Below are positions 33,619 through 51,992 of a stretch of DNA of 54,068 bases, piece after piece. The stretch's first letter is position 1, and the number at the start of each line of letters is the position of its first letter. The notes beneath the pieces are model-generated. The model was not told where the DNA came from. It searched no databases and saw only the letters and a program-made list of their open reading frames with translations. Source of the DNA: a virus (lineage: Duplodnaviria; Caudoviricetes); the IMG/VR virus record IMGVR_UViG_3300044825_001528, positions 1-54,068 of that record; one strand, given 5' to 3'. Made by a program: the position numbers and the translations under genes.

Positions 33619-34386
33619 ATGATATATACGTATATGGAAAATCACGCAATCTTCAACAATACAAAATACACTAGATGGTATTGGGCCATTATCAAAAAAC
33701 GAGCTATCAGTGATCATAAACTGCCTGGCGAAGTTCATCACATTATTCCTAGAAGTTTGGGCGGAACTGACGATAAGAGCAATTTGGTCAAACTAAGCGG
33801 ACATGATCACGCTTGGTGTCACTGGCTACTAACAAAAATGACTGACGGCGAGAATAGATCCAAGATGATCTACGCATTCAATATGATGGGTGTTTATGGG
33901 GAACACATGAGACGAACAAAATCATACGCTATTGTTAGAGCTTATGAAAGAAATCGCGACGAATGGAGAAAGATGCACAGCGAGAAAATGACTGATCGTG
34001 AGCCTTGGAATAAGGGCAAGAAGTTAGACGACGAGAAATATAAAAAGGCCGGCCGAAGCAACAAAGGCAGAGTACTATCTCCAGAAGTTGCGGAGGCTAA
34101 GCGTTTGCGACAGATTGGAAGAACTATGAGCGCGGAATCTAGTCAAAAGAAGCGTGACGCTATGATAGGTTTTGTTAGAGGTCCTATGAGCGAAGAAGAA
34201 AAACAGAAGAGAAGAATACCTCTAATAGGAAAGAAAAAGAAAGAGGGACACGCGGACAATGTTAGAAATGCAGTTTTGGGAAATATATCCATAAACAAAG
34301 ACGGAATAGAAAAGAAGATAAAAAAAGACGTTTTACAAGAATATCTTGACTCTGGGTGGCAATTGGGAGGAAGAAAGAGAAAATGA
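33619..34386 (+). CDS. Free-standing HNH homing endonuclease with NUMOD3-like basic repeats
   Basis: EVHHIIPRSLGGTDDKSNLVKLSGHDHAWCHWLL; PWNKGKK and MSEEEKQKR-type repeats. Confidence 0.88.
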   Translation: MIYTYMENHAIFNNTKYTRWYWAIIKKRAISDHKLPGEVHHIIPRSLGGTDDKSNLVKLSGHDHAWCHWLLTKMTDGENRSKMIYAFNMMGVYGEHMRRTKSYAIVRAYERNRDEWRKMHSEKMTDREPWNKGKKLDDEKYKKAGRSNKGRVLSPEVAEAKRLRQIGRTMSAESSQKKRDAMIGFVRGPMSEEEKQKRRIPLIGKKKKEGHADNVRNAVLGNISINKDGIEKKIKKDVLQEYLDSGWQLGGRKRK

Positions 34387-34946
34387 AAATCAATGAACTA
34401 GATGAAATGACCATGCGTGGTCCTGAATTATCCAATCAAGCAGAACAGTTTGCTAACAAACATAAGGATCACTGGTTATCTCATGGCAAACATATAGCAG
34501 ATATTGAAAACTATCGAGTTCTGCTGGATGGAATATATTATTCACTGTGGGACAACGATGTATTAGTAGCATGCTGTTCATTATCCAACAGCAATAATGA
34601 AGTAGATGATGTTTATGTTGCCGCAAAATATCGCAACAAAAAGATATTTTCAATGATTCTATGGTTCTTCAAAACAAGATTAAACAGATCTCCATTAATG
34701 CTAGGATCTGTGCATTCTAAAATGATGATGGAAGTAGTTAAGGGATTAAGTAGATTCAACAAATACTGGTACAACATATCAACTAATGAAAAACGTCCAT
34801 TTTCAGTAGATACATTAGATGACTATTATAGTTATCTACAGCCAACCTCTTGGAGATTGATGCTTGAAAATTCTGGAGACTTTAATTGGCCTATGCATAA
34901 TACTGGTGGATATGTGAAGGAATCATATTCTTCGTATATAGAGTGA
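34383..34946 (+). CDS. Hypothetical protein with MKINELDE leader, possible GNAT-like fold
   Basis: ATGA overlap with the HNH stop; VDDVYVAAKYRNKKIFSMIL resembles GNAT motif A. Confidence 0.55.
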   Translation: MKINELDEMTMRGPELSNQAEQFANKHKDHWLSHGKHIADIENYRVLLDGIYYSLWDNDVLVACCSLSNSNNEVDDVYVAAKYRNKKIFSMILWFFKTRLNRSPLMLGSVHSKMMMEVVKGLSRFNKYWYNISTNEKRPFSVDTLDDYYSYLQPTSWRLMLENSGDFNWPMHNTGGYVKESYSSYIE

Positions 34947-34966
34947 TCAACTCGGTTTTGTCTATC

Positions 34967-34986
34967 AAAGGGACCTTCGGGTCCCT
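34967..34986. repeat. Exact 20-bp copy of the gp23 terminator hairpin
   Basis: AAAGGGACCTTCGGGTCCCT identical to 33487-33506 but without the plus-strand T-tract. Confidence 0.88.
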
Positions 34987-35020
34987 ACTCTATTGCCATA
35001 TACATATTTGTCATAGCAGA

Positions 35021-35026
35021 TAAATA
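35021..35026 (+). promoter_or_regulatory. Late promoter (TAAATA) for the tail-fibre cluster
   Basis: GATAAATA 20 nt before ATG 35047. Confidence 0.7.
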
Positions 35027-35046
35027 CTACAATACGGGTAAAAACT

Positions 35047-38000
35047 ATGACTCAACAGATAATCAATGTAGGCGAACTTCCAAATGATGGATCAGGAGAT
35101 CCACTACGATTAGCTTTTCAGAAGATCAACGATAACTTCACACAGGTGTTCACGGCCCCAGGCGCTGCTGGAACGGATGGAAGCTTTCAGTATAGAAGCC
35201 TGAATAGCTTGACAGCAGCAGCGTACTATGACACACTATGGGTACTAGGCGGCATCACTCAATGGTGGACCAGTGTAGACGCGGTTACTTGCGAGCCACT
35301 GACCACATACACACCAACATCAGCAGTCAAGCAGATATATGCTGCCGCAACTGGATTCATAGCAGTGGGTGCGGACTCAATGTTGCTGACCAGTGGTGAT
35401 GGTCTGATATGGACTGCTCGCTCACCTGCTGATCCTAGCAACTTCAACGGTGTCGCACAATATGACGGAGGACGATATGTCATAGTTGGTGATGCTGGAG
35501 CTATACAAACTAGTTTAGACGCAATCACTTGGACCAGTGTAGTCAGCGGGACAAGCCAACATCTAAACTCTGTTGCTGTGTCAAGCATTGGATGGGTAGC
35601 AGTAGGTGACAATGGAACTATTGTGTTCAGTAGCAATGGAACAACTTGGGTATTGGTCACTCCTACTGGAACCAGTGAGAACCTGAACAGCGTGGTCTAC
35701 GATGGTAGCTACTATGTGGCAGTTGGAGACGGTGGCACCATACTACGCAGCGCCGATGGAACAGTGTGGGTTCCAATAGTTACCACTATCACAGAGAACT
35801 TGACCAGTGTGACCACAGGAGTGTTTGACGGGGACACCATTGATGTTGCTGTTGGAGACAGTGGAGCTATCTATACAAGCACAGACTTCAGCACCACTTG
35901 GGAGCAACCACTGGGTTATACCAGAGTAGCAAGCAATCTGACCAGTGTTTGTCGCTACAACAATCTATTCTTGGCAGTTGGTCTCAATGGAACCGTGCTG
36001 ACTAGCCCTGATGCGGTAGATTGGTCCAATGTGACCATAGCAGGCGTAATGGTCGGCAGCACACAACTAACCTACAACGACTTGACAGAACAATTGACGG
36101 TTGACAGTACAACTATTAGCATCACTGGCAACACTGACATCAACACTGACAGCACCAAATCACTGAACATTGGATACACTGATGTGTCCAATGTCAATGT
36201 CAGAAGCAGTACCACTATCAACGGACGCTTGCGCCTGCCAGTATACAACGCAAACCCTAACACAGCACACAGTGTTGGTGGAGACATCTTCTACAATGCC
36301 AACACAGGGTTCTTGGAGTGGTTTGACAGTGTGAGTGGTCTTTGGAAGGTAGTCAGTGATGGCAACCCTGACCCAAGCAATACATTGATCAATGGCAACG
36401 CGGTGTTCACGCTGGAAAGCAGTGGTAACACTAGCGTTCCCGGCAGTATGATACCAACAGTTGCCAACAGCTATGACTTGGGCAGTGTTGATAGTCCTTG
36501 GCGCAGCCTGTATGTGTCCAACAACACCATCTACATAGACAGCGTGCCCTTATCAGTGTCTGGCAATACGCTGACAGTAGCTGGCATCCCAGTAATCACT
36601 AGCGATACAACTGACCCAGTTATCACCAGCAACACTGTGACTTCTGCTGGATTGGTGTTGACTACAAACACTGGCATCCAGTTCAGCGACAACACCGTAC
36701 TGACCAGCACTGACAGCATAGGAACAGTCAAGAGTGTTGACATCAGTGGCGGCAACACTGGGCTCACAACTGCTGACGGTCCAATCACTAGCACTGGAAC
36801 CATCACACTGGAGGGAACACTGAACATAGAGCACGGGGGCACTGGTCAGACAACAGCACAGCTAGCATTTGATGCCTTGGCACCTACTACCAATACTGGA
36901 GACATCATCTACAATGATGGGTCTAACAACACTAGACTTCCAATCGGAGAGGACGATCAAGTACTGAAAGTAGTTGGTGGTGTTCCTAGTTGGGCTAACA
37001 ATCAAACAGCTAACACTGGTGATGTTACTTTCTCAACCAATGTTGTACAGGGAACAGGGTATGAACTAGGATTGAGTCCTGGCACTGGATTCACTGATGA
37101 CTATCAATATTTCCGTGTCAGAGGAGGCGATGTTCCAGAGCATCTACACTTCGACACAACTAACAGCAATGCTTACGATCTGTATGTTGGAGACGATCAA
37201 AAGTTCTTCAAGTTGAGCAAAGACGGTCCTGCTATCATTCAATCGCTGGACGCAAATACTGCTACTGGATACACTTGGACATTCGGCATAGACGGCAAAC
37301 TAACACTACCAGTTGATGGTGATATAGTAAACAGCAATGGCAGTTCAGTATTGAGTGTGGGAACAGTGACCAGCATAGACATCAGCGGTGGAGACACAGG
37401 TCTACTCACAGTAGGCGGACCCATCACCAGCAACGGCACTATCACTATAGGTGGAACTCTGAATGTTGCCAATGGCGGCACTGGAGCTACAACAGTAGCG
37501 GCAGCATTTACCGCACTGGCTCCAAGTCAAGCAAACAACGCGGGCAAGCTTCTAACAACCAATGGAACCACTGCTAGCTGGAGTTCATTGGGCATTACCA
37601 ACGAGATCTATGTAAGCAAGGGTGGTAATGACAGCACTGCCGACGGTAGCATTACCAAGCCCTTCCTGACTATCAGTGCCGCGATCAACTATCTGAACAC
37701 CAACTACCCAGTAGCAAACAACAGCGGCACACAGTTCGTGATCGTAGTAGGCCCAGGACTCTACAGTGAGAATGTCAACATCAACAGACTGCTGACACAC
37801 CTATGGGCCTATGAGGGTAAGCTAAAGACCACACGCATCAGTGGAACAGTGACTGTCACCAGTGCTGTTGATTATCAGGGCATATTTCAGAATGTAGTGT
37901 CACTGAACAATCTATTCATTGACAACACAACTAACAATGCGCTAGAGGTCACAGGCAGCATACCAATCAGTATTGACATCAACAACTGTGCGCTGTATAC

Positions 38001-39096
38001 TGATAGCACTGGTGTCCCATTCGTAATGACCAACACTGCTCTAGGCGGTAACAGGCTACGATTGATAGGCACTGATCTAACCGCAGCGGGGAACGCAAGT
38101 GCTCTAGACATCACCAATGTAACCAATTGCTTCATCAACGATATCAACACAAGCAGCGCCAAGGTGGGTGGCAGTGCTTGGAAGATAGCTGATTCGGTAA
38201 TGACCATAGGAACCGTCCAACTAGTTGGAAGTGGAACTAACGGTCCCGCCAATCTGCTAGAGGTCACAGGCGCTACCAGCATAGTGTCTGTGGGCTATAG
38301 TAGCTTCACAAGCGGCACTACCAATGGCAACGGCATCTATATCGGTGCTGGTGCTCGTGTGATTGCTGGTGCCAACTTCTACAACATCCCGCTGGGCACT
38401 GGCTACAGCGTGACTGGTGCTGCTGGCGGCATCTATGTTCGCGGTGGCAATCAGGCTGTACCTGGTACTAACAATGGCGTGAACCCATTGTTGTCACTGT
38501 CAACATTCAATATGAACACGCATATCGCTGCTAGTGATATAGTTGGCGCTGTTGCTATTGCCAATGGAGGCACTGGGCAGACAAGTAAGACAGCAGCGTT
38601 CGACGCACTGGCTCCTACTACCACTGCTGGCGACTTGATCTACTACAACGGTACCGACAATGTTCGTCTACCCGCTGGCAGCAACAATCAAGTACTGTCT
38701 CTAAATGGTACTACTCCAACTTGGGTCAACGGCGTTAGGAAAACCACTGGTAGCTGGACAGTGACACCAGGGTCTAGCACATATAGCTTCAGTGTTCCAG
38801 ACAACAATACCTATACGATGTGGGTCAGAGGAAACATTCCCAATGGCATCATCGTGTGGAACGCTACCGTTTCGCTGTCCAATGCCAATGTTCCAGCGAT
38901 AGGCACGCAGTACGGTTGGTATTATCTAGCCGGAAATCAGTTAGTGCTAACATCAATGCCCGATCAGATAATAGGCACGGCAGGTAGCATTAGCACGGCA
39001 ACTGTAGCTACTACCACAGCAAACACCTTCACATTCGGCATAACAAACAACAGTGGGTCTAACTGTACCATTGAATATGGATACATAACACTATGA
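35047..39096 (+). CDS. Multi-domain tail fibre / receptor-binding protein
   Basis: INVGELPNDGSGDPLRLAFQKINDNF (T4 gp9/gp10-type attachment motif), VAVGDxGTI propeller repeats, repeated GGTGxTT fibre modules, YVSKGGND...GSITKPFLTI beta-helix start. Confidence 0.8.
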   Translation: MTQQIINVGELPNDGSGDPLRLAFQKINDNFTQVFTAPGAAGTDGSFQYRSLNSLTAAAYYDTLWVLGGITQWWTSVDAVTCEPLTTYTPTSAVKQIYAAATGFIAVGADSMLLTSGDGLIWTARSPADPSNFNGVAQYDGGRYVIVGDAGAIQTSLDAITWTSVVSGTSQHLNSVAVSSIGWVAVGDNGTIVFSSNGTTWVLVTPTGTSENLNSVVYDGSYYVAVGDGGTILRSADGTVWVPIVTTITENLTSVTTGVFDGDTIDVAVGDSGAIYTSTDFSTTWEQPLGYTRVASNLTSVCRYNNLFLAVGLNGTVLTSPDAVDWSNVTIAGVMVGSTQLTYNDLTEQLTVDSTTISITGNTDINTDSTKSLNIGYTDVSNVNVRSSTTINGRLRLPVYNANPNTAHSVGGDIFYNANTGFLEWFDSVSGLWKVVSDGNPDPSNTLINGNAVFTLESSGNTSVPGSMIPTVANSYDLGSVDSPWRSLYVSNNTIYIDSVPLSVSGNTLTVAGIPVITSDTTDPVITSNTVTSAGLVLTTNTGIQFSDNTVLTSTDSIGTVKSVDISGGNTGLTTADGPITSTGTITLEGTLNIEHGGTGQTTAQLAFDALAPTTNTGDIIYNDGSNNTRLPIGEDDQVLKVVGGVPSWANNQTANTGDVTFSTNVVQGTGYELGLSPGTGFTDDYQYFRVRGGDVPEHLHFDTTNSNAYDLYVGDDQKFFKLSKDGPAIIQSLDANTATGYTWTFGIDGKLTLPVDGDIVNSNGSSVLSVGTVTSIDISGGDTGLLTVGGPITSNGTITIGGTLNVANGGTGATTVAAAFTALAPSQANNAGKLLTTNGTTASWSSLGITNEIYVSKGGNDSTADGSITKPFLTISAAINYLNTNYPVANNSGTQFVIVVGPGLYSENVNINRLLTHLWAYEGKLKTTRISGTVTVTSAVDYQGIFQNVVSLNNLFIDNTTNNALEVTGSIPISIDINNCALYTDSTGVPFVMTNTALGGNRLRLIGTDLTAAGNASALDITNVTNCFINDINTSSAKVGGSAWKIADSVMTIGTVQLVGSGTNGPANLLEVTGATSIVSVGYSSFTSGTTNGNGIYIGAGARVIAGANFYNIPLGTGYSVTGAAGGIYVRGGNQAVPGTNNGVNPLLSLSTFNMNTHIAASDIVGAVAIANGGTGQTSKTAAFDALAPTTTAGDLIYYNGTDNVRLPAGSNNQVLSLNGTTPTWVNGVRKTTGSWTVTPGSSTYSFSVPDNNTYTMWVRGNIPNGIIVWNATVSLSNANVPAIGTQYGWYYLAGNQLVLTSMPDQIIGTAGSISTATVATTTANTFTFGITNNSGSNCTIEYGYITL

Positions 39097-39461
39097 GAGC
39101 ACGAGAGTTTATCAGTGAAGTAAAGAAAACCCAGATGCGTAAGGATCACGAGAACGCTACTACTGGTCGTCATACATTTACTGATGCTCCAGCCGATAGA
39201 TTTTATGTGCTGGGTAAAGTAATGAGTGCTGCTGCTTGTGCTAATGGTTACGATCCACTGAATGTCCCGGCAGAAACTTGGGTAGGAAAACGAAACACTG
39301 CTCATCCATACACAGATGTTGAAGACAAGATGATGAAGCAAGCATATAAAGCGGTAGGAGTCAAATGGAAGGATCACAATCACGGTGATTTACGCAGTAT
39401 GGAGCCAGAAAGCACCAATAGCACTAGTCCAATAAAGCCATTCAAGGGATACAAACGATGA
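39093..39461 (+). CDS. Hypothetical protein with MRAREFISE leader, ending SPIKPFKGYKR
   Basis: ATGA overlaps at both ends; paralogous to the last module of 41088..41972. Confidence 0.78.
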   Translation: MRAREFISEVKKTQMRKDHENATTGRHTFTDAPADRFYVLGKVMSAAACANGYDPLNVPAETWVGKRNTAHPYTDVEDKMMKQAYKAVGVKWKDHNHGDLRSMEPESTNSTSPIKPFKGYKR

Positions 39462-40318
39462 AAATCACGGAGATACTCACTGAAGCTCCGATTACTGATT
39501 ATGTGCCCATTGGAGATTTCAGCAAGGACCTACAGTTTAGAGGACCAGATGTTAAGTTAGCGGTTCACCCAACTAACATCCAAAAGGCTCGTGATTTTTT
39601 CTCTAACTCACCCTACAACTTCAGATTCTTCGTTGTTAATAGTCCCAGAGTGCGACAGCATCGCGAAACTGGCGAAGCGAGTCCTGAAAAAATCCGCGAA
39701 ATATTTCCCAAACAGGCAGATGCTATACTCAAAAATCACGAGAATGCCATCACCGTGATATACATTGGTAACTACGGTCAAGACAAAGTGATGTTCACGC
39801 CGTGGACTATGGCACATAGAGTAGGTCACGCAATCGTGGCAAGTGGAAGATATGATGCGCGAAAATTCAATAACAGCGCCTGGTATAAGCTAGAACAAGA
39901 TTTTCTAGAGAGTATGGGTCTGATATTACAGAACTTCTATGGACTTCAACTTGAGCGTAGAGCATACGGGTCATATTCAGTGTGGGGTAAAAATCGTCAG
40001 CATTTCAACGCACTATTCAACAAAATAGGAACTCAACGCAGCAGTCGTGAAAATCAGATTACCAGACCCTATGAGTTCTTATACGAACTATTCGCGCAAT
40101 TCATTCAGACAGGTGATGTAAAGTTTAATCCACTGCCTATCACCGCATCTTACGGTCGCAAAGCTTGGGGCAGACCAACCAACTATATTGGTTTAAAACA
40201 GCAATATAGAACTCCTGAATTTGATAGAGAAGCTAACCTGAATAAAGTTCGCGAGCAACTAATTAGAAACTTTAATGCGGTATTACAGGACGCTATGGGT
40301 AAAATTTATCTGATGTAA
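39458..40318 (+). CDS. Hypothetical protein with MKITEILTE leader and degenerate zincin-like HRxGH motif
   Basis: TPWTMAHRVGHA with downstream YELFAQ. Confidence 0.7.
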   Translation: MKITEILTEAPITDYVPIGDFSKDLQFRGPDVKLAVHPTNIQKARDFFSNSPYNFRFFVVNSPRVRQHRETGEASPEKIREIFPKQADAILKNHENAITVIYIGNYGQDKVMFTPWTMAHRVGHAIVASGRYDARKFNNSAWYKLEQDFLESMGLILQNFYGLQLERRAYGSYSVWGKNRQHFNALFNKIGTQRSSRENQITRPYEFLYELFAQFIQTGDVKFNPLPITASYGRKAWGRPTNYIGLKQQYRTPEFDREANLNKVREQLIRNFNAVLQDAMGKIYLM

Positions 40319-40322
40319 TGCT

Positions 40323-41078
40323 ATGAGATATCGCGAACTAATCACTGATGCTAGAAAGAATAAAAACGATCCGAAATATCCATTTCACGCTGGATGGGAT
40401 GAGTTGAATAGAATTAAACACAGAGCCAAAATGGTGGGAGATGATTTAGCTGATACATATCAGTTATTCATACCTAAAACTAATCTAGCGGGAATGACCA
40501 GACGAGAAAGAAGATTATCCAATCTTGCCAACAGATATGCCTATGATGAACGGGGTAATTTGCGACCACGATATAAAGATTGGGAAGAGAAAGGGCCAAT
40601 TAGCGAAGCGATACCAATATTGCCGACTGGAAAACCTAATATAGAAGCAGGCGGTAATAAACCAGGTCGAGCATTTTGGACAAGCACTGCGTATAAACAG
40701 AATGGTAGTTGGACTAGCGAATGGAATGAATGGGTAAAGGGTAATATGTCGCACTGGTCTAGTCCCATTGGATATCTGTATCGTGTTCGACCAGGCGCGC
40801 TATTATTGCCGTTTGATAATACATACGATGCCGAAAATATTCAACACGCATTCGCTGATTTAGAAGTTGCCAAACATCCTGAATTTGGTGGATTCGGCTA
40901 CACTACTGATTTTCCTTGGAATCAGATAGTCAAGCATTTTGACGGAGTTCATCACTATAATAGCGGTCGCCGTTTTGATGATTTCACCTATGGCTGGGAT
41001 GTTGAAAGCACTGCGTGGTTTAACACCGACTTCTTACAATTTGCTGGCGAAGTTAAGGTAAATACTTCTAAAGATTGA
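40323..41078 (+). CDS. Two-module hypothetical protein with MRYRELITD leader
   Basis: Basic N-module, PISE-A junction, then a KPGRAFWTST...FDGVH...GWDVES module. Confidence 0.7.
   Translation: MRYRELITDARKNKNDPKYPFHAGWDELNRIKHRAKMVGDDLADTYQLFIPKTNLAGMTRRERRLSNLANRYAYDERGNLRPRYKDWEEKGPISEAIPILPTGKPNIEAGGNKPGRAFWTSTAYKQNGSWTSEWNEWVKGNMSHWSSPIGYLYRVRPGALLLPFDNTYDAENIQHAFADLEVAKHPEFGGFGYTTDFPWNQIVKHFDGVHHYNSGRRFDDFTYGWDVESTAWFNTDFLQFAGEVKVNTSKD
41059..41064 (+). promoter_or_regulatory. Late promoter (TAAATA) for 41088
   Basis: GGTAAATA within the end of the upstream gene, 23 nt before the ATG. Confidence 0.5.
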
Positions 41079-41087
41079 GAATATAAT

Positions 41088-41972
41088 ATGAGAGCCAGAC
41101 AACTACAAGAAGATACCACAACGCTAAAACAGATATACGGCGACGAATATCCCGATGATTATGAGCGTATTTGGCTATATGTGACCTTGCGTGACTTTAA
41201 TATTCCCTTTACAATATTCACTATTCGTCCGCGTGAATTAGAACAACGACTAATATCTCAATACAGAGTAGAGGATTTAGATGAATTAACTGATAAATTG
41301 AAACCAGAACAACGACAGATACTCAAGCGATATATTCGCGATCCTAGATTATCAGACAGTATTATCATCGTTCACAACGATATGATAATTGACGGTAATC
41401 ATCGTGCTTTTGCCGCCGCTCTAAAGGGAGTTCCCGTTAGAGCGATTGATTTGGCAGAAACTGACGCAGAGCAATTGGACGAGAAGTGGAGCAAGAGTTA
41501 TAAGCGTAGTATTGATTGTAATAATCCCAAAGGATTTAGTCAGCGCGCTCATTGCGCCGCTCGCAAAGCTCGTCAGACTGGCAAAAAGACCAAGAGTGCC
41601 AGCGTTAATGAGGGCAGAACAGGAACATTAGCACCAGATGTGGCACGAGCATTACCCGCGGTATATGCTCTACCAGAGTTGCTCAATCAGGATCCCTATC
41701 TACAATACAGATTTGGTGTTGCTATTGCTGGTGCTAAAGGAGCCAAAAAGAGAGCAGAAGACGGAGTTCCTGATTATGGTAAAGAAAGTGCTTGGGGAGA
41801 GAACGAGATTATCGTAAGCTTTGATCCCGACATAGAAACATACATAGATGATGCACTAAAAGCAATGGGTATGAGTGGAAAGAAACTTATAAGCACCAGA
41901 AAGAGCGAAGAGGCAGAGGATGTTTCCAAAAACAGTCCAATCAAGCCTTTCAAGGGTTATCGGCGTCGTTAA
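41088..41972 (+). CDS. Three-module protein: ParB/Srx-like domain, small basic Cys module, paralog of 39093
   Basis: IIDGNHRAFAA (ParB-N-like); QLDE-KWSKSYKRSIDCNNPKGFSQRAHC; SVNE-GRTG...SPIKPFKGYRRR. Confidence 0.72.
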   Translation: MRARQLQEDTTTLKQIYGDEYPDDYERIWLYVTLRDFNIPFTIFTIRPRELEQRLISQYRVEDLDELTDKLKPEQRQILKRYIRDPRLSDSIIIVHNDMIIDGNHRAFAAALKGVPVRAIDLAETDAEQLDEKWSKSYKRSIDCNNPKGFSQRAHCAARKARQTGKKTKSASVNEGRTGTLAPDVARALPAVYALPELLNQDPYLQYRFGVAIAGAKGAKKRAEDGVPDYGKESAWGENEIIVSFDPDIETYIDDALKAMGMSGKKLISTRKSEEAEDVSKNSPIKPFKGYRRR

Positions 41973-43537
41973 TTGAATACTATGGTTCCACTTCCTGTAA
42001 AAGTATAAATTCTATATCCTCCTGACACTGTTATTGTTGGGCTTCCGGTAGTAGTAGCAGCAGAAATAGAGTCAGAAATGCGAAGTATTACAATACCACT
42101 ACCACCGCCTCCTCCAATACTGCTTCCGGAACCTCTTCCTCCACCACCGCCCCCGCTATTTGCTATCCCGGAAGTAGGATTAGAATCTCCAGCGGTTCCA
42201 CCTCCACCACCGCCACTACCACCACTCCCGGGAGAAGACCCTGTTATACATCCCCCTCCACCACCGCCCCCATATATCGCAGGAGATCCAGAAATTGAAG
42301 TCAATAATCCGCTACCACCTGCTCCCCCGACCCCATATCCAGAATTCGCTCCTACGATAGATGCTCCACCGCCTCCACCTCCGCTTCCGCCCACAGAATC
42401 TCTAACGCTAGACCCTCCATTATTTCCTTGTCCTAATATCCCGCTACCACCGCCACCTCCGTAGCCTCCTCCTCCACCGCTTCCTCCGTTGCTTCCATTG
42501 GACAAATTTTGTGGAAGATTTCCACTTCCACCCCCACCCCCAACAGATATTAAAATAGAAAAACGACTATCAGCGCCGTTCAATCCCCCAGAAACTGTGG
42601 CGGCTCCTCCGGCTCCGACCACTATATTGTAAGATTGCGCGGTTAATAATGAAACTGATCCGGCTCTAACTCCTCCGCCTCCTCCGCCTCCGCCAGCAGT
42701 CGTTCCTCCTCCGCCTCCTCCAGCAACAATTACATAATCAACTCCAATTGTCGGCGCTGGCCCAGCATTATCAGGAAAGGACGACCCCGGAGCCCAAACT
42801 ATTCTTACTGCTCCGCTCGCTCCAGCCGAAGACCCTGGATTATCTCCAATTACTACACCACCTCCCCCTCCTCCACCATATAACCCTCCAGGTCCTATTG
42901 GCTGTCCATCACCGCCCGGAGTAATACTACCATATAATCCAGTTCCCCCACCTCCGCCAGAGAAACTTGAAGTTATTATGCTTGATCCTGATCCACTACC
43001 TCCAGGAACTCCATAGCCACCCGCACCACCTCCACCACCCTGTCCATATCCTTGTGGTGTTGAACCACCGACGCCTCCACCTCCCCCATTACCGTCTCCA
43101 GCTCCTCCACTGGGTGCACCAAAAACGGAATATCCTCCAGATCCTCCATTATAACCAACATAACCAGACAATCCGCTAGCAACTCCTCCGGGGTTGGGCA
43201 CTACATTGCCATTGTTACCTCCTCCTCCTTGTACAATTGTTGTAGATCCATCTTTAACAAAGCTGGCAGTAGCAGCCCCGCCAACTTGAACAGACAAACT
43301 CTGTCCTGGAATAACTGGATAATTATTGTAATAAGCTAATGCTCCACCACTACCACCAGCCCAAGGATTTCCTGCCACCCCTCCAAATCCAGTACCGCCC
43401 CCACCTATAGCAACCATAGATACATTTGCTACATTACTTGGAACAATAAAAGTATAGCTTCCTGGAATATTATAGACAATATCTTGTCCTGTTGGAGCCT
43501 CTGATGGATTTCTTCTTCCTATTGGGTTTAAAAACAT
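41969..43537 (-). CDS. Glycine-rich virion/fibre-associated protein with two Gly-rich domains
   Basis: PGSYTFIVPSNVANVSMVAIGGGG...GASGAVRIVW and VDYVIVAGGGGGG...GGSGIVILR...YRIYTFTGSG; AAGGA SD and minus-strand TAAATA upstream. Confidence 0.82.
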   Translation of the reverse strand: MFLNPIGRRNPSEAPTGQDIVYNIPGSYTFIVPSNVANVSMVAIGGGGTGFGGVAGNPWAGGSGGALAYYNNYPVIPGQSLSVQVGGAATASFVKDGSTTIVQGGGGNNGNVVPNPGGVASGLSGYVGYNGGSGGYSVFGAPSGGAGDGNGGGGGVGGSTPQGYGQGGGGGAGGYGVPGGSGSGSSIITSSFSGGGGGTGLYGSITPGGDGQPIGPGGLYGGGGGGGVVIGDNPGSSAGASGAVRIVWAPGSSFPDNAGPAPTIGVDYVIVAGGGGGGTTAGGGGGGGGVRAGSVSLLTAQSYNIVVGAGGAATVSGGLNGADSRFSILISVGGGGGSGNLPQNLSNGSNGGSGGGGGYGGGGGSGILGQGNNGGSSVRDSVGGSGGGGGGASIVGANSGYGVGGAGGSGLLTSISGSPAIYGGGGGGGCITGSSPGSGGSGGGGGGTAGDSNPTSGIANSGGGGGGRGSGSSIGGGGGSGIVILRISDSISAATTTGSPTITVSGGYRIYTFTGSGTIVFN

Positions 43538-45328: not shown

Positions 45329-45331
45329 ATA
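45326..45331 (+). promoter_or_regulatory. Late promoter (TAAATA) overlapping the terminase stop
   Basis: CATAAATA-7 nt-ATG 45339. Confidence 0.65.
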
Positions 45332-45338
45332 ATAGATT

Positions 45339-46379
45339 ATGCGTATATCTGAAATACTTAATGAAGTTGATCGTAGAGGGTTTTTGAAGAAATTAGCAGG
45401 AGGTGCTGCGGCTGGAGCGGCAGCAGTTGGTGCTCTAAAAGCACCCTGGGAAAAATTCTTCAAAGGTGACGAGGTATCAGATGATTATGGTAAAGAAGCA
45501 GAACCAGTAAATATTCCCAGACAGGCAATGCTAATCAATTTAGCTAGAAGACAAATGGAAAATCTGCGATCAATGAATATTATTAATTCGGCTACATTAC
45601 AGCAGTATTCAGAAAGAGCATTAATTAGAGCATTATTATCGGCTAAACCATATGCTTCAAATCAAGAAATAGCACAATTTTTGGCACAATGTAAGGGAGA
45701 AACTGGAGCTTTTACTAGTCTAGACGAGAGATTAGAATGGAAAACTCCCGAGAGAATGTTTAGGCATTTCACAAAGAAACTCAATCCAAATATCAAGAAT
45801 GTGGATAATATTAGTCCTGAAGAACGACAGATCGGTATGGAAAAAGCACAAGAGCTAATATCAAACCCAGAAGATTTTAAATCACCCTATCTTGCCAATT
45901 TCATCTATGCTAATGTCATTGGAAACGGCCCAGAAGATACTGGTGATGGTTGGAATTACAGAGGAAAAGGATTCTTGCATTTGACTGGAAAAGCTAATTA
46001 TAGAGATATTGGCGGAGAATCATTGGTTGCTAATCCAGATTTATTGCTTACTGATATGAATTGGGCGATATTTACAGCAGTTAATTATTGGCTAAAAAGA
46101 GTAGCGTCTAAATCTAATGATTGGGCAGATACAGCAAAAATTACTAAACTAGTTAATCCAAACACAGGTGCCGATGCAATAAGCAAAAGAGATCGTTATT
46201 TCAAAGAATATATGAAGATAATAGGTTCTGTTGCTGATGAAATAAGAAAAGAACTACACATTAGACAACCACATCTTCCAAAAAATCGTCCGCATCCAAG
46301 CACAGAACGCCCAACTCTTAAGACTCCTCCAAAGACTAAAACTAAAAAACCAGCTATTAAAAAGCCAACAAGGAAGTAG
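45339..46379 (+). CDS. GH19-family peptidoglycan hydrolase with twin-arginine-like N-terminal signal
   Basis: AQFLAQCKGETG, ANFIYANVIGNG, GDGWNYRGKGFLHLTGKANY, NPDLL, ITKLVN; N-terminus MRISEILNE-VDRRGFLKKLAGGAAAGAAAVGAL. Confidence 0.85.
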   Translation: MRISEILNEVDRRGFLKKLAGGAAAGAAAVGALKAPWEKFFKGDEVSDDYGKEAEPVNIPRQAMLINLARRQMENLRSMNIINSATLQQYSERALIRALLSAKPYASNQEIAQFLAQCKGETGAFTSLDERLEWKTPERMFRHFTKKLNPNIKNVDNISPEERQIGMEKAQELISNPEDFKSPYLANFIYANVIGNGPEDTGDGWNYRGKGFLHLTGKANYRDIGGESLVANPDLLLTDMNWAIFTAVNYWLKRVASKSNDWADTAKITKLVNPNTGADAISKRDRYFKEYMKIIGSVADEIRKELHIRQPHLPKNRPHPSTERPTLKTPPKTKTKKPAIKKPTRK

Positions 46380-46401
46380 AATAACAATAGGCTCTATTTG
46401 A

Positions 46402-46407
46402 TAAATA
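46402..46407 (+). promoter_or_regulatory. Late promoter (TAAATA)
   Basis: GATAAATA 25 nt before ATG 46433. Confidence 0.68.
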
Positions 46408-46432
46408 GTAGATAATATGGATTTTTATCACT

Positions 46433-47908
46433 ATGCCAAAATCAGCCGATACTATATTGCCAGAGCTTTATGATCTATTGAAGACCAAGGGATTTAATCC
46501 CAAATCATTTAAATCTGGTAAAAAATCTGTAGTTCCAGGTGAAGCTACACTGATTAGCTTTCGTTTCAAAGATGATGATAAGGAGTATGGAACTAGTCAT
46601 GTGGCTATTGACAATCTGCGTCAGCTTATTCTGTTTTATAATAGAGCAGCAATGCGTGATGCTAAAACAGCCTGGACTAGCTTTATCAAAGAACTTAAGA
46701 ATTGGGGAATGCGTAGAGGAATTCAAAAATTTGATCTAGATACTGTTGATAATCTTCAAGATTATTTGGAGCGTAGAGAAAGTTCAGAAAGATTGGACGA
46801 AAGTTATCACGGCACAAAATATACTAGCTATAGTGACAAAACTCCCAAAACAGTTAAGCTTATAATCAAACATAATAAGGCTCTTGAAGAAACTGATAAA
46901 CGCTACAGACATGTAGATAAGATATTCGTTGAGAATGAACAGGGTGAAAGATTTATATTGCCAACCAAGAAACCCAGTGTGGGTTATGTTTATGCTAGAT
47001 TGATAGCAGAGGGTGGTAATCCCTATGATGAGCGTGGTAAGCATATAGCTGAAATCAGTGAAGATATATCACGATTGGCTGGTTTTGTTCGCGCAACCAA
47101 ATCAAAGCAATTCAATGAGAGCATTCAATCATTAGTCAGTGAGGCAACAGAACAATACTATAAACTGCGTGAGACATTACATAAATTGCGTGGCTCACGA
47201 GGGTTTCGTGAGTATTTTGAAAACTGGCAGCCTACTCTAATGGAAAATGATACTGATATTGATAGACTTAAATCAGCATTTGAAAACTCAAGCATTGATC
47301 CAAGAATAGAACAAGCACTGCCAACATTGAGTAAGTTCAACATTAATGTCTCTGAAATGACCGAAAGCTATCAATTTGAGGATTGGGCAAATGATTTCTT
47401 GAATGAGGAACTAAAGCCAAATCTACAGGGTCAGGTTGATGAACTGATAGAACTATTAGGAGCGGATAGTGATCCACTACCATTAGGTCCTGATGCTACT
47501 AATGTGCTTGGAGTATTAGAGAACTTGATTGATGACGACAAATTGAGTCAGAGATTAATCAGAGCGGCTGAAGCAGATCCAAATAACGATGCTCGCCCAC
47601 TTATTATAGGATGGATGAGTGAGCACAGTGATGACGATATGTATAGAGAGGTTTTGGACAGTGTAAACCCAGAAGAGGAAGAATCAATGCCTCAAGAAAC
47701 TCCTCCAGCAGAACCTTCTGATGCAAATAACAATGCTGCTGATGCTGCTGCACCCATTGAACAACCTAATATAGAAATGCCACCAGAACAAGAAGAACCT
47801 GCACCTGAATTGCCTGGATTACCTGGATCTGCACCTAAACAACAAAAACCACTTAAAGAATCAGCAGATTTACAGCGCCTTCGTGTATTGAGTGGATTGA
47901 TCAAATAA
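46433..47908 (+). CDS. Head-associated/internal protein of unknown function
   Basis: GTKYTSY...KLIIKH...IFVENEQGERF...GGNPYD; many x-x-E-S sites; ends LQRLRVLSGLIK like the scaffold terminus. Confidence 0.7.
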   Translation: MPKSADTILPELYDLLKTKGFNPKSFKSGKKSVVPGEATLISFRFKDDDKEYGTSHVAIDNLRQLILFYNRAAMRDAKTAWTSFIKELKNWGMRRGIQKFDLDTVDNLQDYLERRESSERLDESYHGTKYTSYSDKTPKTVKLIIKHNKALEETDKRYRHVDKIFVENEQGERFILPTKKPSVGYVYARLIAEGGNPYDERGKHIAEISEDISRLAGFVRATKSKQFNESIQSLVSEATEQYYKLRETLHKLRGSRGFREYFENWQPTLMENDTDIDRLKSAFENSSIDPRIEQALPTLSKFNINVSEMTESYQFEDWANDFLNEELKPNLQGQVDELIELLGADSDPLPLGPDATNVLGVLENLIDDDKLSQRLIRAAEADPNNDARPLIIGWMSEHSDDDMYREVLDSVNPEEEESMPQETPPAEPSDANNNAADAAAPIEQPNIEMPPEQEEPAPELPGLPGSAPKQQKPLKESADLQRLRVLSGLIK

Positions 47909-47918
47909 GGAAGTAGTA

Positions 47919-49700
47919 ATGAAACAGTTAAAAGAGTTTGAAAACTGGACTGATAGCATAATCAAATCAACTGTATTTGAGAAGAAAGACACACGCGACG
48001 AGCGAGCCATTGAGCGTCAGCGTGATATAGTTTATAAAGCAAAGCAGGCATTTCCTGAGTATCCAGAATCTCAAGCTATTGAATTGTTCCTAGCCGATAA
48101 GCTATCTGACATTGAGCAGCGTGATTTTGAGCAGAACAAAGTCATCAATTTGCAGCGTAGAGAGAATGATAAACTTAAAGGTAATCTACAGGATCTACAA
48201 TCAGAGATTCAGAATATTGAAGCGGGCGGTCAGGAAACTGATCGAGAAATAGCAAGACTCAAACAATTGAGCGGTAAGCTTCAAACTGATGTAGAACAGC
48301 GTAGAGTTGGTGGTCGCGAAGTAAATGAACTATTAGCACAAGTTGAACAACTTAAAAACAAGCCTGGGGTTACTCCAGAACAATATAAAGACATCAAAGA
48401 TAAAGTAGAGGATTTTTCTAAACAAAAAGTCAATCCAGAAGAATTCAAAAAGTTTGAGAATCAACTGAAGACGCTTGCTGCTAGCGAAGCAATAGATAAA
48501 GAACAAATATCCAATTTACAATCAGCGATAGATTCTGTAACCAGAAGACAGGAAAAAATAGGCGATATCAGTGATGTTGCTGGCAAACTTCGTGATTTGG
48601 AGTCTAAACAAAGTGAAATTGAGCAAGTAGCAACTGCCAATAAAGAATTGGTTGGTGATTTAAATCAACGACTAGAAACTCTCGGTGCTGCTGATCGTGC
48701 TGATATTGAGCGTGCATCAGAATTGCTGCGAGATTTACAGGGGACTAAACAAGAGCTTGATGCTAAACAACAAGAACTGTCAGACTTCGAACGCAATCTA
48801 CAGACTCGTGTGGATAAAGAAATTGAACAAGAAAAAGCTACAACCAAGAAAAGAATGCAGGATTATTTTCGTCGTGCTAAAAAACGCAGCGCACAAGCAG
48901 CCACTAAAATCAATGCTCTTGTTGGAAAAGATGCTGGTATAGAAAAAATTCGCGAATTAGGTAGAACTATTACTGATCTTCAAAACAAAGATTTTGAAGA
49001 CATGACAATTTATCCTTCGATAGACGATATATCGTTAGAATTGAGTGGATTGGAAGGATGGCAAGAACTGACAGAGAGAAGAAGAAAGAGAATAGAAGCC
49101 GAAATAAAAAAATTGAAAAGCACTGTTGATTTTCTTCTTAAGAGATTAGTACAGCCGGATCTTCCTAATATTCCTTCTCCTGATCTTACATCGGAATTAG
49201 AACTTTCTCCTGAGCAAAAAAAAGAAAAGGATTATCAAGAATATGTACAACAAGCTAAAGATATAATGAAAAAAAATAACCTTGAACTTGATCTTAAAGA
49301 GGATGCATCTCAGTATGTAAATATAGAACCTGAATATTCAAAGATTATTGAATATTTAAAAGATAAATGGCTCAAATCATCAGATGGTTATCGCGAGACT
49401 GCTTTACTAGCCAATAAATTTCTTGATTTATCTTATCTTGATAGAATTATATATTATTATCTAAAAAAATCCAAAATCGATATTACTTCTATTAATAATG
49501 CCGACTTAGAAAAAGAATTTACTGAAATTTATCTTCCTTTAATCATAAAAAAAACAAATCAAAAAGCAAATCAAAAAGCAAATCAAAAAAAAGATTATTT
49601 GAATCAACCAACTAATCCGATAGACAAAGGATTATCAGAACTGGAAGAATCATTGGACAGAATCATAGGTAAAGATGTAGCAACTTGGATAAAACGATGA
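47919..49700 (+). CDS. Long coiled-coil hypothetical protein
   Basis: AAGGA SD; heptad-rich E/K/Q/L composition; AT-rich C-terminal segment. Confidence 0.75.
   Translation: MKQLKEFENWTDSIIKSTVFEKKDTRDERAIERQRDIVYKAKQAFPEYPESQAIELFLADKLSDIEQRDFEQNKVINLQRRENDKLKGNLQDLQSEIQNIEAGGQETDREIARLKQLSGKLQTDVEQRRVGGREVNELLAQVEQLKNKPGVTPEQYKDIKDKVEDFSKQKVNPEEFKKFENQLKTLAASEAIDKEQISNLQSAIDSVTRRQEKIGDISDVAGKLRDLESKQSEIEQVATANKELVGDLNQRLETLGAADRADIERASELLRDLQGTKQELDAKQQELSDFERNLQTRVDKEIEQEKATTKKRMQDYFRRAKKRSAQAATKINALVGKDAGIEKIRELGRTITDLQNKDFEDMTIYPSIDDISLELSGLEGWQELTERRRKRIEAEIKKLKSTVDFLLKRLVQPDLPNIPSPDLTSELELSPEQKKEKDYQEYVQQAKDIMKKNNLELDLKEDASQYVNIEPEYSKIIEYLKDKWLKSSDGYRETALLANKFLDLSYLDRIIYYYLKKSKIDITSINNADLEKEFTEIYLPLIIKKTNQKANQKANQKKDYLNQPTNPIDKGLSELEESLDRIIGKDVATWIKR
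49555..49589 (+). repeat. 12-bp tandem repeat (CAAATCAAAAAG x about 3) encoding NQKA
   Basis: Directly visible; in frame. Confidence 0.85.
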
Positions 49701-50095
49701 AGATCAAACATATCATAAGAGAAAACACTGTGCTTGATCGTAAGCCAACAGTGAAGCCAGAGGAAATAGAACTCAATGAACCAGGCGGGTTCAATATAGT
49801 AATCCTGAATGATAATGTGACTCCATATCAGGTGGTAGTAGAGGCTATTATGCATGCAGTAGGACTTTCTGAACACGAAGCATTCAGTAGAATGATGCAG
49901 GCACATCAAATAGGATGGGGAGTAATTGCAACCTATGCCAGCAGAGATATTGCTGAAACTGTAGCCAACAAACTAGAGCAGCATGCTCGTGCCAATACTA
50001 ACTGGGATCATTATAGACCAATGATACCTCCACGCGGTTACTACAGACCCTGGCCACTAACAGCAGAAGTTATGGAGGCTGGTGATGCGTCTTGA
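49697..50095 (+). CDS. clpS: ClpS-like N-degron adaptor with MKIKHIIRE leader
   Basis: FNIVILNDNVTPYQVVVEAI...AFSRMMQAHQIGWGVIATYASRDIAET; ATGA overlap at 49697. Confidence 0.85.
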   Translation: MKIKHIIRENTVLDRKPTVKPEEIELNEPGGFNIVILNDNVTPYQVVVEAIMHAVGLSEHEAFSRMMQAHQIGWGVIATYASRDIAETVANKLEQHARANTNWDHYRPMIPPRGYYRPWPLTAEVMEAGDAS

Positions 50096-51992
50096 TGAGT
50101 TTGTGAACAGAAGATTCAGCAATACTCTATTAGAAGCCAAAGGTCATCTAGATCATCCTGAGGATCTGGTCTTTATTGGCGGTCGTGATGGTATGTTGCG
50201 AGCTATTCAGGCTATACAGCAAACAGCACAAACACCCAAGAACATTACCATAAAGTGGGACGGTTATCCAGCACTGATATTTGGTCGTGGGCCTGATGGT
50301 AAGTTCACGATTATGGACAAGCATATGTTCAACAAACAGGACAGTGCTGTTCGCCAATTGCATAGTCCGGAAGAATGGATGAGATATGAAAGTGCTCGCG
50401 GAGACAAGCAACGCACTGGTCTAATGAACATAATCAACAATATTTGGACAGGATTAGAAGCAGCAAGCACCAAGCCTGGATATTATTGGGGAGATCTATT
50501 GTTCAGCAGTCCTCTACAGGAACAAAACGGACTCTATAGATTCAGAGCCAATCCAAATGGTATTACTTATACAGTTGATGTTGATAGTCCAATTGGGCGA
50601 TTATTATCAAACAAAGTAGCTGGAATAGCAGTGCATCAGTATCTAGATCCAAATGCTATGTCTACTGACGAGGCCAAATCATTGGATGGCACAGTAGGGA
50701 ATCTAAAAAATGCAGGCAATGTTGCTATAGTTCCCAGTGCCATGCCGCAAACTCCTAGAGTAGTTATACCACAGGCTATGTTTACGCGAGCACAAGAATT
50801 GGTCAATAGATATGCCGACGATATAGATAAGTTCTTCAACAATGCTCCACAGGCCAAAAGTGCCTTTACTGGATTATTCACTACCTATATCAATAACAAG
50901 ATAGTCAGTGGAGATCTCAAGAACTTGGTCGCAGACTTCTATCGTTGGGTAGATAGTAGACCAATGACCGAGCGTATGCGTGCTAAAATCAACGAGTATC
51001 TAAAGAATAATCGCAGTGCTATCGTTGCCATATTCACAGTATGGGCAGCAATCTACAACTTGAAAAACAGTGTGGTCAAACAGTTGGACAGAGCAAGCAG
51101 AACCAGTCCAGTCAAGGGGTATCTACAAAGTGGCACACAAAGTCAAGAAGGATTCGTAAGTCAGGGATTGAAGTTTGTCAACAGATTAGGATTTGCTCGT
51201 CAGAATCTTGCCGTCAAACAACAGCAGCCACTATCAGAAGCCATTGATAACAAGCAAGTATTGATCATCTATCCAGGAGGATTTCATCCATTTCATCTTG
51301 GACATGCCAGTGTGTTTGATCACTTGGCCAAAAAGTTTCCTGATGGTGAAGTATTCGTAGCAGCAACCGATACTAAAACAGAACGCCCATTTGGATTTGA
51401 TGACAAGAAGTTCTTGGCCAATCAGAGTGGCGTTCCGAATGACAGATTTGTGCAGGTCAAAAGTCCCTATCGTAGTGAAGAGATAACCAAAAACTATGAT
51501 CCAAATAATACGATACTAGTGTTTGCAGTCAGTGAAAAGGATCGTGACAGAATCGGATTCAAGCCAAAAGCAGATGGATCTCCAAGCTACTTTCAGCCAT
51601 ACAAGGATGATGTTAGTGCCCCAATGAAGCAACACGGATACATCTATGTGGTTCCAAAGATTGATTTTGAGATTGGTGGCAAAGTGATTGACAGCGCCAG
51701 CAAGATTAGACAGATGTATCAGAATGCTGATGATAGCAAACGCAAGCAAATCATAGCTGATCTGTATCCACTTGGTCGTGCTCCAAAACGCATCAAGAGC
51801 ATATTGGATTCGGTACTGGGCCATTCCACATCATCAGATGTCAAAGAAGCCGATAATCCAAACTATTTTGGTGCCAGCAGTATGAGTCCTATTCCAGGCA
51901 CTCCACAAAGTCTACAGCCACAACCAACCATCAAAAAGAAAGCTCGTGAACGCGCCGAACAGGCAGCACTGCAACGCTTTATGGGTCACTAA
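50085..51992 (+). CDS. Fusion of a ligase-like KxDG domain (DUF6267-like) and an HxGH cytidylyl/adenylyltransferase-like domain
   Basis: HLDHPEDL, TIKWDGYPA, WGDLLF, QEGFV, LKFVNR; after PLSE-A comes IYPGGFHPFHLGH, KDRDR, SASKIR. Confidence 0.75.
   Translation: MRLDEFVNRRFSNTLLEAKGHLDHPEDLVFIGGRDGMLRAIQAIQQTAQTPKNITIKWDGYPALIFGRGPDGKFTIMDKHMFNKQDSAVRQLHSPEEWMRYESARGDKQRTGLMNIINNIWTGLEAASTKPGYYWGDLLFSSPLQEQNGLYRFRANPNGITYTVDVDSPIGRLLSNKVAGIAVHQYLDPNAMSTDEAKSLDGTVGNLKNAGNVAIVPSAMPQTPRVVIPQAMFTRAQELVNRYADDIDKFFNNAPQAKSAFTGLFTTYINNKIVSGDLKNLVADFYRWVDSRPMTERMRAKINEYLKNNRSAIVAIFTVWAAIYNLKNSVVKQLDRASRTSPVKGYLQSGTQSQEGFVSQGLKFVNRLGFARQNLAVKQQQPLSEAIDNKQVLIIYPGGFHPFHLGHASVFDHLAKKFPDGEVFVAATDTKTERPFGFDDKKFLANQSGVPNDRFVQVKSPYRSEEITKNYDPNNTILVFAVSEKDRDRIGFKPKADGSPSYFQPYKDDVSAPMKQHGYIYVVPKIDFEIGGKVIDSASKIRQMYQNADDSKRKQIIADLYPLGRAPKRIKSILDSVLGHSTSSDVKEADNPNYFGASSMSPIPGTPQSLQPQPTIKKKARERAEQAALQRFMGH

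Follow-up and report, generated by a model that had tools for sequence, protein, structure and literature searches.

In bacteriophage T4, a capsid targeting sequence (CTS), given as MKTYQEFIAE in the available text of PMC8442874, is described in the accessible parts of PMC3012670 and PMC8442874 as a peptide that suffices for targeting, and the prohead protease gp21, with catalytic H85 and S140, is reported in the available text of PMC12991175 to cleave after the Glu of I/LxE. We read the same peptide in the T4 record at ipII and ipIII. Here we analyzed a similar N-terminal leader that occurs on a set of late proteins encoded by the IMG/VR virus record IMGVR_UViG_3300044825_001528 (Caudoviricetes), using the whole 54,068-base stretch, hereafter the window, which is the entire record of this genome. 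Judged from its sequence, the closest known system is the T4 CTS together with gp21, with a like peptide, cut rule and head machinery, and we consider it fairly likely that the leader is a capsid targeting and propeptide signal of the T4 type.

Other described systems resemble this arrangement in part. The phiKZ-like phages (e.g. SPN3US with its gp245 protease) are giant phages too, and many of their head-internal and ejected proteins are cut by a prohead protease during maturation, as far as the available text of PMC5694885, PMC7411985 and PMC10052503 describes. They nevertheless belong to a different phage lineage. To our knowledge, their cut motif and propeptides differ as well, and we know of no short universal N-terminal tag described for them. 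The cargo-loading peptides of encapsulins likewise are short portable tags that send unrelated enzymes inside an HK97-fold shell, but they are usually C-terminal and uncleaved and act in cellular compartments rather than in virions. Polyvalent proteins of phages and conjugative elements, which are presumed to enter the host along with the DNA, are long chains of domains such as ADP-ribosyltransferase, GNAT, peptidase and nucleotide-targeting ones (available text of PMC7824862), and tagged relatives of the proteins studied here also include ADP-ribosyltransferase, NUDIX, nucleotidyltransferase and M48 peptidase domains. In contrast to the polyvalent proteins, the present ones have a defined leader and hydrophobic-x-Glu joints suiting a prohead protease, a code that does not appear in the accessible text of that jumbo-phage review, which mentions phage ClpS and injected polyvalent proteins and contains neither 'prohead protease' nor 'internal protein'. 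In the literature searched, which lies outside subscription journals, we found no description of such leaders beyond T4 and the phiKZ-like phages, and none for RaK2/PA5oct-like or environmental phages.

All nine N-termini from which the initial annotation had proposed a common leader were read exactly where it had placed them (Table 1; genes and proteins are named here by the first position of the gene), and four of the start codons (34383, 39093, 39458 and 49697) are supported by ATGA overlaps with the upstream stop codon. A strict form of the leader, ^M[KR]..[EQDH][ILFVM].{1,2}[ED], was run on ATG-started open reading frames (ORFs) of at least 50 amino acids on both strands, and matched exactly seven ORFs in the window, all of them real gene starts on the initial list. 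Together with two loose forms (29239 and 50085) and one with T4 spacing (47919), these constitute the leader members of the window, with the consensus M-R-A-x-E-F-I-x-E. The 47919 protein, which fails the strict pattern, is a possible further member. In eight of the nine listed cases the leader closes with [IL]xE, the remaining one (40323) closing I-T-D. The tagged proteins had been described as otherwise dissimilar, and this was mostly true in an all-against-all BLASTP comparison, except that 39093 and 41088 share their C-terminal ends (39 aligned residues, 46% identity, E 4e-5), the sole match obtained.

The pattern without its Met was seen 31 times among 13,991 positions inside window proteins, against which background seven of the 35 gene starts compare with 0.078 expected; the corresponding binomial P of about 2e-12 is optimistic, since the pattern was written after the data had been seen. 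Scanning ORFs of at least 60 amino acids from the first Met, we obtained seven matches among 74 in the window and two of 520, four of 668 and two of 680 in Pseudomonas phage PA5oct, Vibrio phage 2.275.O and RaK2, respectively, i.e. the leader is enriched in the window and occurs on 0.3–0.6% of the ORFs of the three relatives. Within the window, none of the tail, baseplate, portal, capsid, terminase, recombination and single-stranded DNA-binding protein (SSB) genes carries it. The genes on which it sits are accessory late genes. A complete 355-kb IMG/VR genome (here G002) carries the leader core on 12 of 413 ORFs, seven of which lie in one array at 27–41 kb, whereas the 264 ORFs located between 40 and 260 kb are all devoid of it. 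Because the leader ORFs of G002 are clustered and absent from these 264 ORFs, the leader sets a particular class of genes apart and cannot be put down to how start regions look in general.

Metagenomic homologs with the leader number in the hundreds. Across 767 kb in 80 metagenomic loci, collected with an alignment of the 39458 protein, the leader core starts 244 of 1,576 ORFs of at least 60 amino acids, a denominator that includes spurious ORFs, and the tagged ORFs often stand in head-to-tail arrays. We further picked 165 unique metagenomic proteins on residues 1–6 only. Residue 7 was Ile or Leu in 116 and residue 9 was Glu in 119 of them. In 110 of these proteins the first hydrophobic-x-Glu closed on residue 9, and in 19 on residue 8; as the proteins had been chosen on residues 1–6 only, the end of the leader is conserved independently of the selection. 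Among 150 tagged metagenomic proteins, 49 matched a Pfam family at E<=1e-5 and 101 did not. The families were GP88 (12), GH19 (7), DUF6321 (6) and NUDIX (4), followed by NT5C, Pol-beta-type nucleotidyltransferase, DUF6267 and DUF3920 (three each), dCMP deaminase, amidoligase and DUF6934 (two each, one of the latter beside Pol-beta on one protein), and HD, Peptidase_M48 and ADP-ribosyltransferase (one each).

The leader is retained on homologs at 45–60% identity. It is present in some form on 22 of 35 homologs of the ClpS-like protein (14 strict, four core and four T4-spaced, e.g. MKTLREYIDLI.E), on the three closest GH19 homologs, on 69 of the 137 representatives in which the 39458 domain could be anchored, and on 65 homologs of 41088 among the 120 matches listed (1,359 at E<=0.001), one of which starts MKTYQEFISE. 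The G002 ortholog of 39093 (42.6% identity) starts MKIREIITE. This conservation is at the protein level. When the seven strict starts were compared as a possible shared DNA cassette, the 30 nucleotides upstream showed 30% identity, no more than expected at random, and different codons were used for the conserved residues; the cassette was rejected on this ground, and the leader is therefore conserved as protein and not as copied DNA.

These observations bear on the possibility that the leader carries no protein signal and merely reflects selection on the translation start of late genes, with Lys or Arg at position 2 and favoured codons. All tagged genes do lie in late-type operons, and bacterial proteins often begin with Met followed by Lys or Arg. 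However, other genes in these late clusters (tail, baseplate, portal, capsid and terminase) do without the leader, the codons vary and the upstream DNA is unrelated, residues 7–9 are conserved, and the motif recurs inside longer proteins, all of which makes this explanation extremely unlikely. As for the late clusters themselves, which the initial annotation had called TAAATA-driven, TAAATA is indeed enriched upstream of genes: it lies 5–60 nucleotides upstream of the gene start in 10 of 25 cases on the plus strand (0.7 expected) and in five of 13 on the minus strand (0.11 expected), and judging from this placement it behaves as a promoter-like element. Among the tagged genes, however, only 41088, 45339 and 29239 have a copy of their own, and those without one sit downstream in the same orientation.

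The proposed portability of the tag was borne out, as domains behind it have untagged homologs that start just past it. The Vibrio phage homolog of the DUF6267 protein begins at the residue aligned right after ...NTLLE of the window protein, and the leader is likewise missing from the ClpS proteins of PA5oct, the Vibrio phage and G002, and from the GH19 proteins of G002 and other phages. Because untagged ClpS, GH19 and DUF6267 homologs begin at the start predicted for the tagged proteins after cutting, the leader is an add-on. Conserved core genes flank the tagged genes, which are accessory insertions, and for six of the eight we found no counterpart in PA5oct, Vibrio 2.275.O or RaK2. Single-protein scans of IMG/VR for close relatives returned none for 39458 and one weak locus for GH19.

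The likeness to the T4 signal extends from the peptide to the head. The leader is close in sequence to MKTYQEFIAE and closes in the gp21 cut motif (I/L)xE; both are N-terminal peptides of about ten residues on otherwise unrelated, non-essential proteins, and in T4 and the window phage alike the cargo genes are hypervariable between relatives. The window encodes a gp21-type protease: its S77 protease aligns to the T4 gp21 structure 5jbl (E 6.3e-16), with the catalytic His (GEVDHP) and Ser (SSRG) motifs in register. Both phages further have a Gp23-family capsid protein and a T4-type portal (PF07230, 2.4e-102, in the window, where the large terminase is T4-type likewise), and two complete IMG/VR genomes with the 39458 domain also encode the S77 protease. 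The scaffold-like protein of the window contains 22 [IL]xE sites versus 7.8 expected from its composition, and in the capsid protein all four [IL]xE sites begin within residues 1–41 and none in the other 365, with a propeptide site [ILVM]x[ED] followed by Asn near residue 34 conserved in five phages. As far as sequence can tell, cut motifs in the head proteins are thus distributed as in T4.

Differences from T4 are also evident. In the window, the leader spacing is one residue shorter, and the cargo consists mostly of larger enzymes and multi-domain proteins, compared to the small basic inhibitors of T4; moreover, the motif serves a second time where modules of polyproteins are joined, and one cargo protein additionally has a twin-arginine translocation (Tat) signal. 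The phage itself belongs to the RaK2/PA5oct group and, at about 350 kb, counts as a jumbo phage. This assignment follows from the capsid protein, which shares 63–66% identity with its counterparts in three jumbo phages of 290–470 kb (Sinorhizobium phage Phosso, Vibrio phage 2.275.O and Pseudomonas phage PA5oct) and 76% with that of G002, identifying the window, by sequence, as a fragment of an uncultured RaK2/PA5oct-like jumbo phage.

The use of the motif inside longer chains is most apparent for the 39458 domain (868 representative clusters at E<=0.001), which occurs either alone behind the leader or as the last domain of proteins of 400–1,050 amino acids. Among the 150 representatives listed, out of the 868, an anchor pattern placed the domain internally in 65 and N-terminally in 72, with 13 unanchored; at least three of the 65 internal placements were false by eye. 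Among the internal copies, the residue three before the domain is Val, Leu or Ile in 58 of 65, and Ala or Met follows the Glu in 60 of 65; the joint Glu itself belongs to the anchor pattern and is therefore not independent evidence. Thirty-two of these 65 long proteins also start with the leader. A comparable joint precedes the unrelated, small basic two-Cys module of 41088: in the 120 homologs listed, hydrophobic-x-Glu ends one residue before the module in 42 of 46 copies, 37 of them internal. In 41088 itself, a ParB/Srx-like domain (residues ~7–124) is followed by the joint QLDE/K, the basic Cys module (~134–172), the joint SVNE/G and a C-terminal domain. Its AlphaFold2 model is confident for residues 7–124 and falls below 50 for residues 1–6 and 125–134, the latter holding the QLDE/K joint. 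In the model of 39458 (predicted local distance difference test, pLDDT, 92.2; predicted TM-score 0.90), the first ten residues average ~51. The predicted structures agree with the leader and, in 41088, the first joint lying in flexible stretches beside confident domains.

These joints also speak to the possibility that the leader is a recognition tag for some other phage process, e.g. an AAA+ protease or chaperone system (ClpX, ClpA, ClpP, FtsH) acting in timed turnover or unfolding. PA5oct encodes homologs of ClpX, ClpS, ClpP, ClpA, FtsH and DnaJ (positions 160000–196000), and the window encodes a ClpS-like protein. Yet the motif is found at module borders within polyproteins, beyond the reach of an N-terminal degron; it fits the gp21 cut rule and the T4 CTS, and the ClpS-like protein is itself tagged. 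We regard this explanation as very unlikely.

Owing to its close resemblance to the load-then-cut signal of T4, the leader probably serves as a label by which enzymes are addressed to the capsid and packed there, suggesting a model in which it represents the local form of the T4 CTS, a short flexible N-terminal peptide ahead of unrelated accessory late proteins. The leader would draw the tagged proteins into the scaffolding core during prohead assembly, and the S77 protease of the gp21 type would then cleave after the closing hydrophobic-x-Glu; where the motif joins modules in longer relatives, a single chain would yield several proteins. After trimming, the cargo would stay in the head with the DNA and would probably be delivered into the next cell, although such injection is less likely than targeting and cleavage. 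For the window, the candidate cargo comprises a ClpS-like adaptor, a ParB/Srx-like protein, a ligase-like nucleotidyltransferase, a GNAT-like protein, a GH19 enzyme and uncharacterised domains.

Several observations weigh against this model. Loading into the head, cleavage and injection of the tagged proteins are all argued solely from the analogy with T4, and the leader pattern was defined post hoc, the controls on relatives being those results that do not rest on the P value given above. The leader of 40323 ends in Asp, and the Glu conserved ahead of a module might be part of that module's fold instead of a cut site. Many tagged relatives are NUDIX, 5'-nucleotidase, dCMP deaminase or HD proteins, usually cytoplasmic enzymes, and such enzymes of nucleotide metabolism would seem to have no obvious need for injection. 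No head genes were found within 10 kb of the tagged arrays in the 80 metagenomic loci. Virion mass spectrometry (MS) of PA5oct is uninformative: it flags the leader-bearing small head protein but not EST35_0271 (MKIKEIILE), and since ribonucleotide reductase, thymidylate synthase and other metabolic enzymes are flagged too, a flag is no proof of virion location. PA5oct was dropped as a proxy for the virion of the window phage, as its whole genome gave only two to four pattern matches, orthologs of the tagged genes were not found in it and its MS list is non-specific; the available text of the PA5oct paper (PMC7318152) contains nothing on cleavage or leaders.

A further point on this side is that the bodies of the tagged proteins do not avoid [IL]xE, with 14 sites observed versus 14.2 expected, which rules out avoidance of the cut motif. 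Such a rate is as expected for degradation-bound proteins, and the leader might thus be a processing propeptide only, marking substrates of the prohead protease or another protease without any targeting, the tagged proteins being assembly factors associated with the core or scaffold, to be degraded or expelled, and not injected effectors. In keeping with this explanation, like N-termini and many cut motifs are present on the scaffold-like protein and on small proteins of the head module. On the other hand, the folded enzyme domains that make up the cargo have been retained in distant relatives, which is hard to square with destruction, and the equivalent T4 peptide suffices for targeting, as stated in the accessible text of PMC3012670 and PMC8442874. 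A role in processing without targeting is therefore rather unlikely in our view.

The GH19 protein presents a particular difficulty for capsid loading. Directly behind the leader of 45339 stands a twin-arginine signal composed of RRGFLKK and a Gly/Ala-rich hydrophobic stretch, and residues 10–32 match TIGR01409 with 21 bits, above the curated cut-off of 16.7. The leader and RRGFL persist in homologs at 90, 47 and 49% identity, the conservation of RRGFL(K/R) with the hydrophobic stretch extending to those at 47–49%, and the homolog P0039 carries a precomputed PF10518. The same layout recurs in two of the 165 tagged metagenomic proteins, a GH19 protein (L080:9375-10004) and a Peptidase_M48 protein (L101:7016-7705). 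By its sequence, this signal fits export from the producing cell better than packaging, and the layout may reflect Tat export, a signal-anchor lysin or re-export after injection. In this respect 45339 resembles twin-arginine signal peptides and signal-anchor-release endolysins, but the nine residues before its RR motif are the phage leader.

Where RRxFL is combined with a Gly/Ala-rich stretch, as in the GH19 protein and a few further tagged proteins, the N-terminus could simply be the n-region of a twin-arginine or signal-anchor sequence on lysis enzymes exported from the producing cell, its likeness to the leader having another cause. The above-cut-off TIGR01409 match, the retention of the signal in homologs, its reappearance on another GH19 and a Peptidase_M48 protein, and the PHROG call of 45339 as endolysin are all in line with such a role. 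Nevertheless, the nine residues before RR fit the leader pattern exactly and are kept in homologs, and the signal is present on only two of the 165 metagenomic proteins and on GH19 alone among the tagged proteins of the window. Since so few tagged proteins have a Tat signal, it cannot explain the leader generally, and we hold this explanation to be quite improbable.

At its widest, the targeting and cleavage model would make the leader and the hydrophobic-x-Glu joints a general delivery code of a large uncultured jumbo-phage clade, including a two-step label on the GH19 and M48 proteins, an extension that we consider unlikely. Dozens of enzymes and module strings would be sent to the prohead, split by the head protease and injected with the DNA; the injected ClpS-like adaptor would be able to act on the host Clp machinery at the first moment of infection, and clipping of the GH19 and M48 leaders would expose the twin-arginine signal, so that the Tat system of the new host could pass the enzyme to the periplasm. 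If the proposed reading of the leader holds, what has been a three-protein curiosity of T4 would become widespread programmable enzyme delivery by giant phages before gene expression, with a large and fast-changing cargo kit. Leader and joints would then provide a sequence rule predicting injected proteins from genomes alone, and hundreds of unannotated domains would become candidates for an early-acting effector or counter-defence role. Phage capsids could also be loaded with foreign proteins by means of new tags, and a ClpS-like adaptor or a Tat-signal enzyme as injected cargo would become testable.

Table 1. Head-module and leader-bearing genes of the window (positions are those of the 54,068-base stretch)
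Feature	Coordinates	Strand	Remarks
Small head-module protein, 73 amino acids, starting MLLLEF (loose leader form)	29239..29460	+	directly after portal gene
Head-module protein, 281 amino acids, very acidic then basic, [IL]xE site starting at residue 14	29576..30421	+	
Prohead protease, T4 gp21 type (Peptidase_S77)	30437..31069	+	PF03420, 1.8e-27; proposed leader cutter
Scaffold-like coiled-coil protein, rich in cut motifs	31087..32187	+	kept in four relatives
Major capsid protein, Gp23 family, with N-terminal propeptide	32215..33435	+	Pfam Gp23, 5.6e-98, from residue 54
Tagged protein 1, MKINELDE, weakly GNAT-like	34383..34946	+	ATGA overlap with HNH gene
Tagged protein 2, MRAREFISE, 122 amino acids, uncharacterised	39093..39461	+	C-terminal end common to 41088
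Tagged protein 3, MKITEILTE, widespread domain of ~277 amino acids	39458..40318	+	
Tagged protein 4, MRYRELITD, 251 amino acids, uncharacterised	40323..41078	+	phrog_8582, 6.5e-5
Tagged protein 5, MRARQLQE, modular	41088..41972	+	
Tagged protein 6, MRISEILNE, twin-arginine signal (residues 10-32) and GH19 muramidase-like domain	45339..46379	+	
Coiled-coil protein, 593 amino acids, MKQLKEFEN (T4 leader spacing)	47919..49700	+	fails strict pattern
Tagged protein 7, MKIKHIIRE, ClpS-like with conserved C-terminal extension	49697..50095	+	
Tagged protein 8, 17-residue leader MRLDEF..NTLLE, DUF6267 and cytidylyltransferase-like domain	50085..51992	+	DUF6267, 9.9e-41

As indicated in Table 1, the tagged proteins carry domains of varying clarity. 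The ClpS assignment of 49697 is secure (Pfam PF02617, 58.4 bits versus a cut-off of 23, residues 28–101, 6e-16), and N38, D39, T42, P43 and H70, which we take to be pocket residues, are invariant in 36 sequences. The family has a conserved C-terminal extension of about 30 residues in 35 of 35 homologs, and the ClpS proteins of PA5oct and G002 are shorter, ending soon after the ClpS domain with no such conserved tail. For 45339, the GH19 call agrees with a PHROG endolysin match (phrog_181, 1.5e-31) and with the precomputed PF00182 of its close homologs, although its own PF00182 score stays just below threshold (24.9 versus 25.5). The GNAT-like assignment of 34383 is weaker, with an Acetyltransf_1 (PF00583) match of E 0.0014 that reaches 19.4 bits versus a cut-off of 20.7 and spans positions 25–82 of the 116-position model.

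No Pfam match was obtained at E<=10 for 39093, 39458, 40323 or 41088. The ParB-like label given to 41088 likewise found no sequence hit, either in Pfam at this threshold or among PDB sequences, and is carried by a moderate match at the fold level: Foldseek gave a best E of 0.23, and all 20 top rows of the VIA second look were ParB, KorB, Noc, Srx, Osa or PadC (Z 6.4–3.7, residues 41–123), so that the model moderately favours a ParB/Srx-like fold for the N-terminal domain. The basic two-Cys module of this protein (~134–172) corresponds to no Pfam family and is found in hundreds of proteins, at times twice in one, fused to lysozyme, SleB/LysM, cytidylyltransferase-like, dCMP deaminase and nucleotidyltransferase domains. 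For 39458, a fold search of the PDB returned no match (Foldseek best E 0.11; VIA wide best Z 4.4). W116, H120, R121, H124 and E206 of this domain are invariant in 49 sequences, and weak leads point to zincin-like metallopeptidases (the ATLF family in Atlas, 17% of one cluster, and weak Foldseek rows). Atlas gave a lead, and a lead only, from 40323 to ADP-ribosyltransferases. In 50085, the DUF6267 part contains a K-W-D-G stretch, which we take to recall motif I of nucleotidyl-transferring ligases, and the C-terminal part contains the cytidylyltransferase-like signature GGFHPFHLGH.

Within the T4-type structural block, baseplate genes resembling gp6, gp25, gp5 and gp53 were assigned by Pfam and PHROG, and the window further contains gp46/gp47-like recombination nuclease genes and a gp32-like SSB. 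Counterparts of the 29239 protein start MKINDIITE in PA5oct (EST35_0150, which bears an electrospray ionization tandem mass spectrometry flag in its record), MKLVELFE in the Vibrio phage and MNIFELF in G002. The 29576 gene fills the slot between this small head protein and the protease, and its product, with homologs at the equivalent position in PA5oct and G002, shows long Asp-Met and Glu runs followed by a basic Lys/Pro-rich tail. Directly 3' of the capsid gene lies an HNH homing-endonuclease gene (33619–34386, plus strand), at a position matching that of a Hef-like homing endonuclease in PA5oct. The first part of the window (1–7200) is deviant in composition (GC 42–50%), holds mostly short plus-strand ORFs with GTG or TTG starts, and contains no leader-bearing ORF by the strict pattern at the 50-residue minimum. 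The sole minus-strand gene within the late plus-strand block (41969–43537) encodes a 522-residue Gly_rich_2 protein, and its region has a strong negative GC skew (-0.32).

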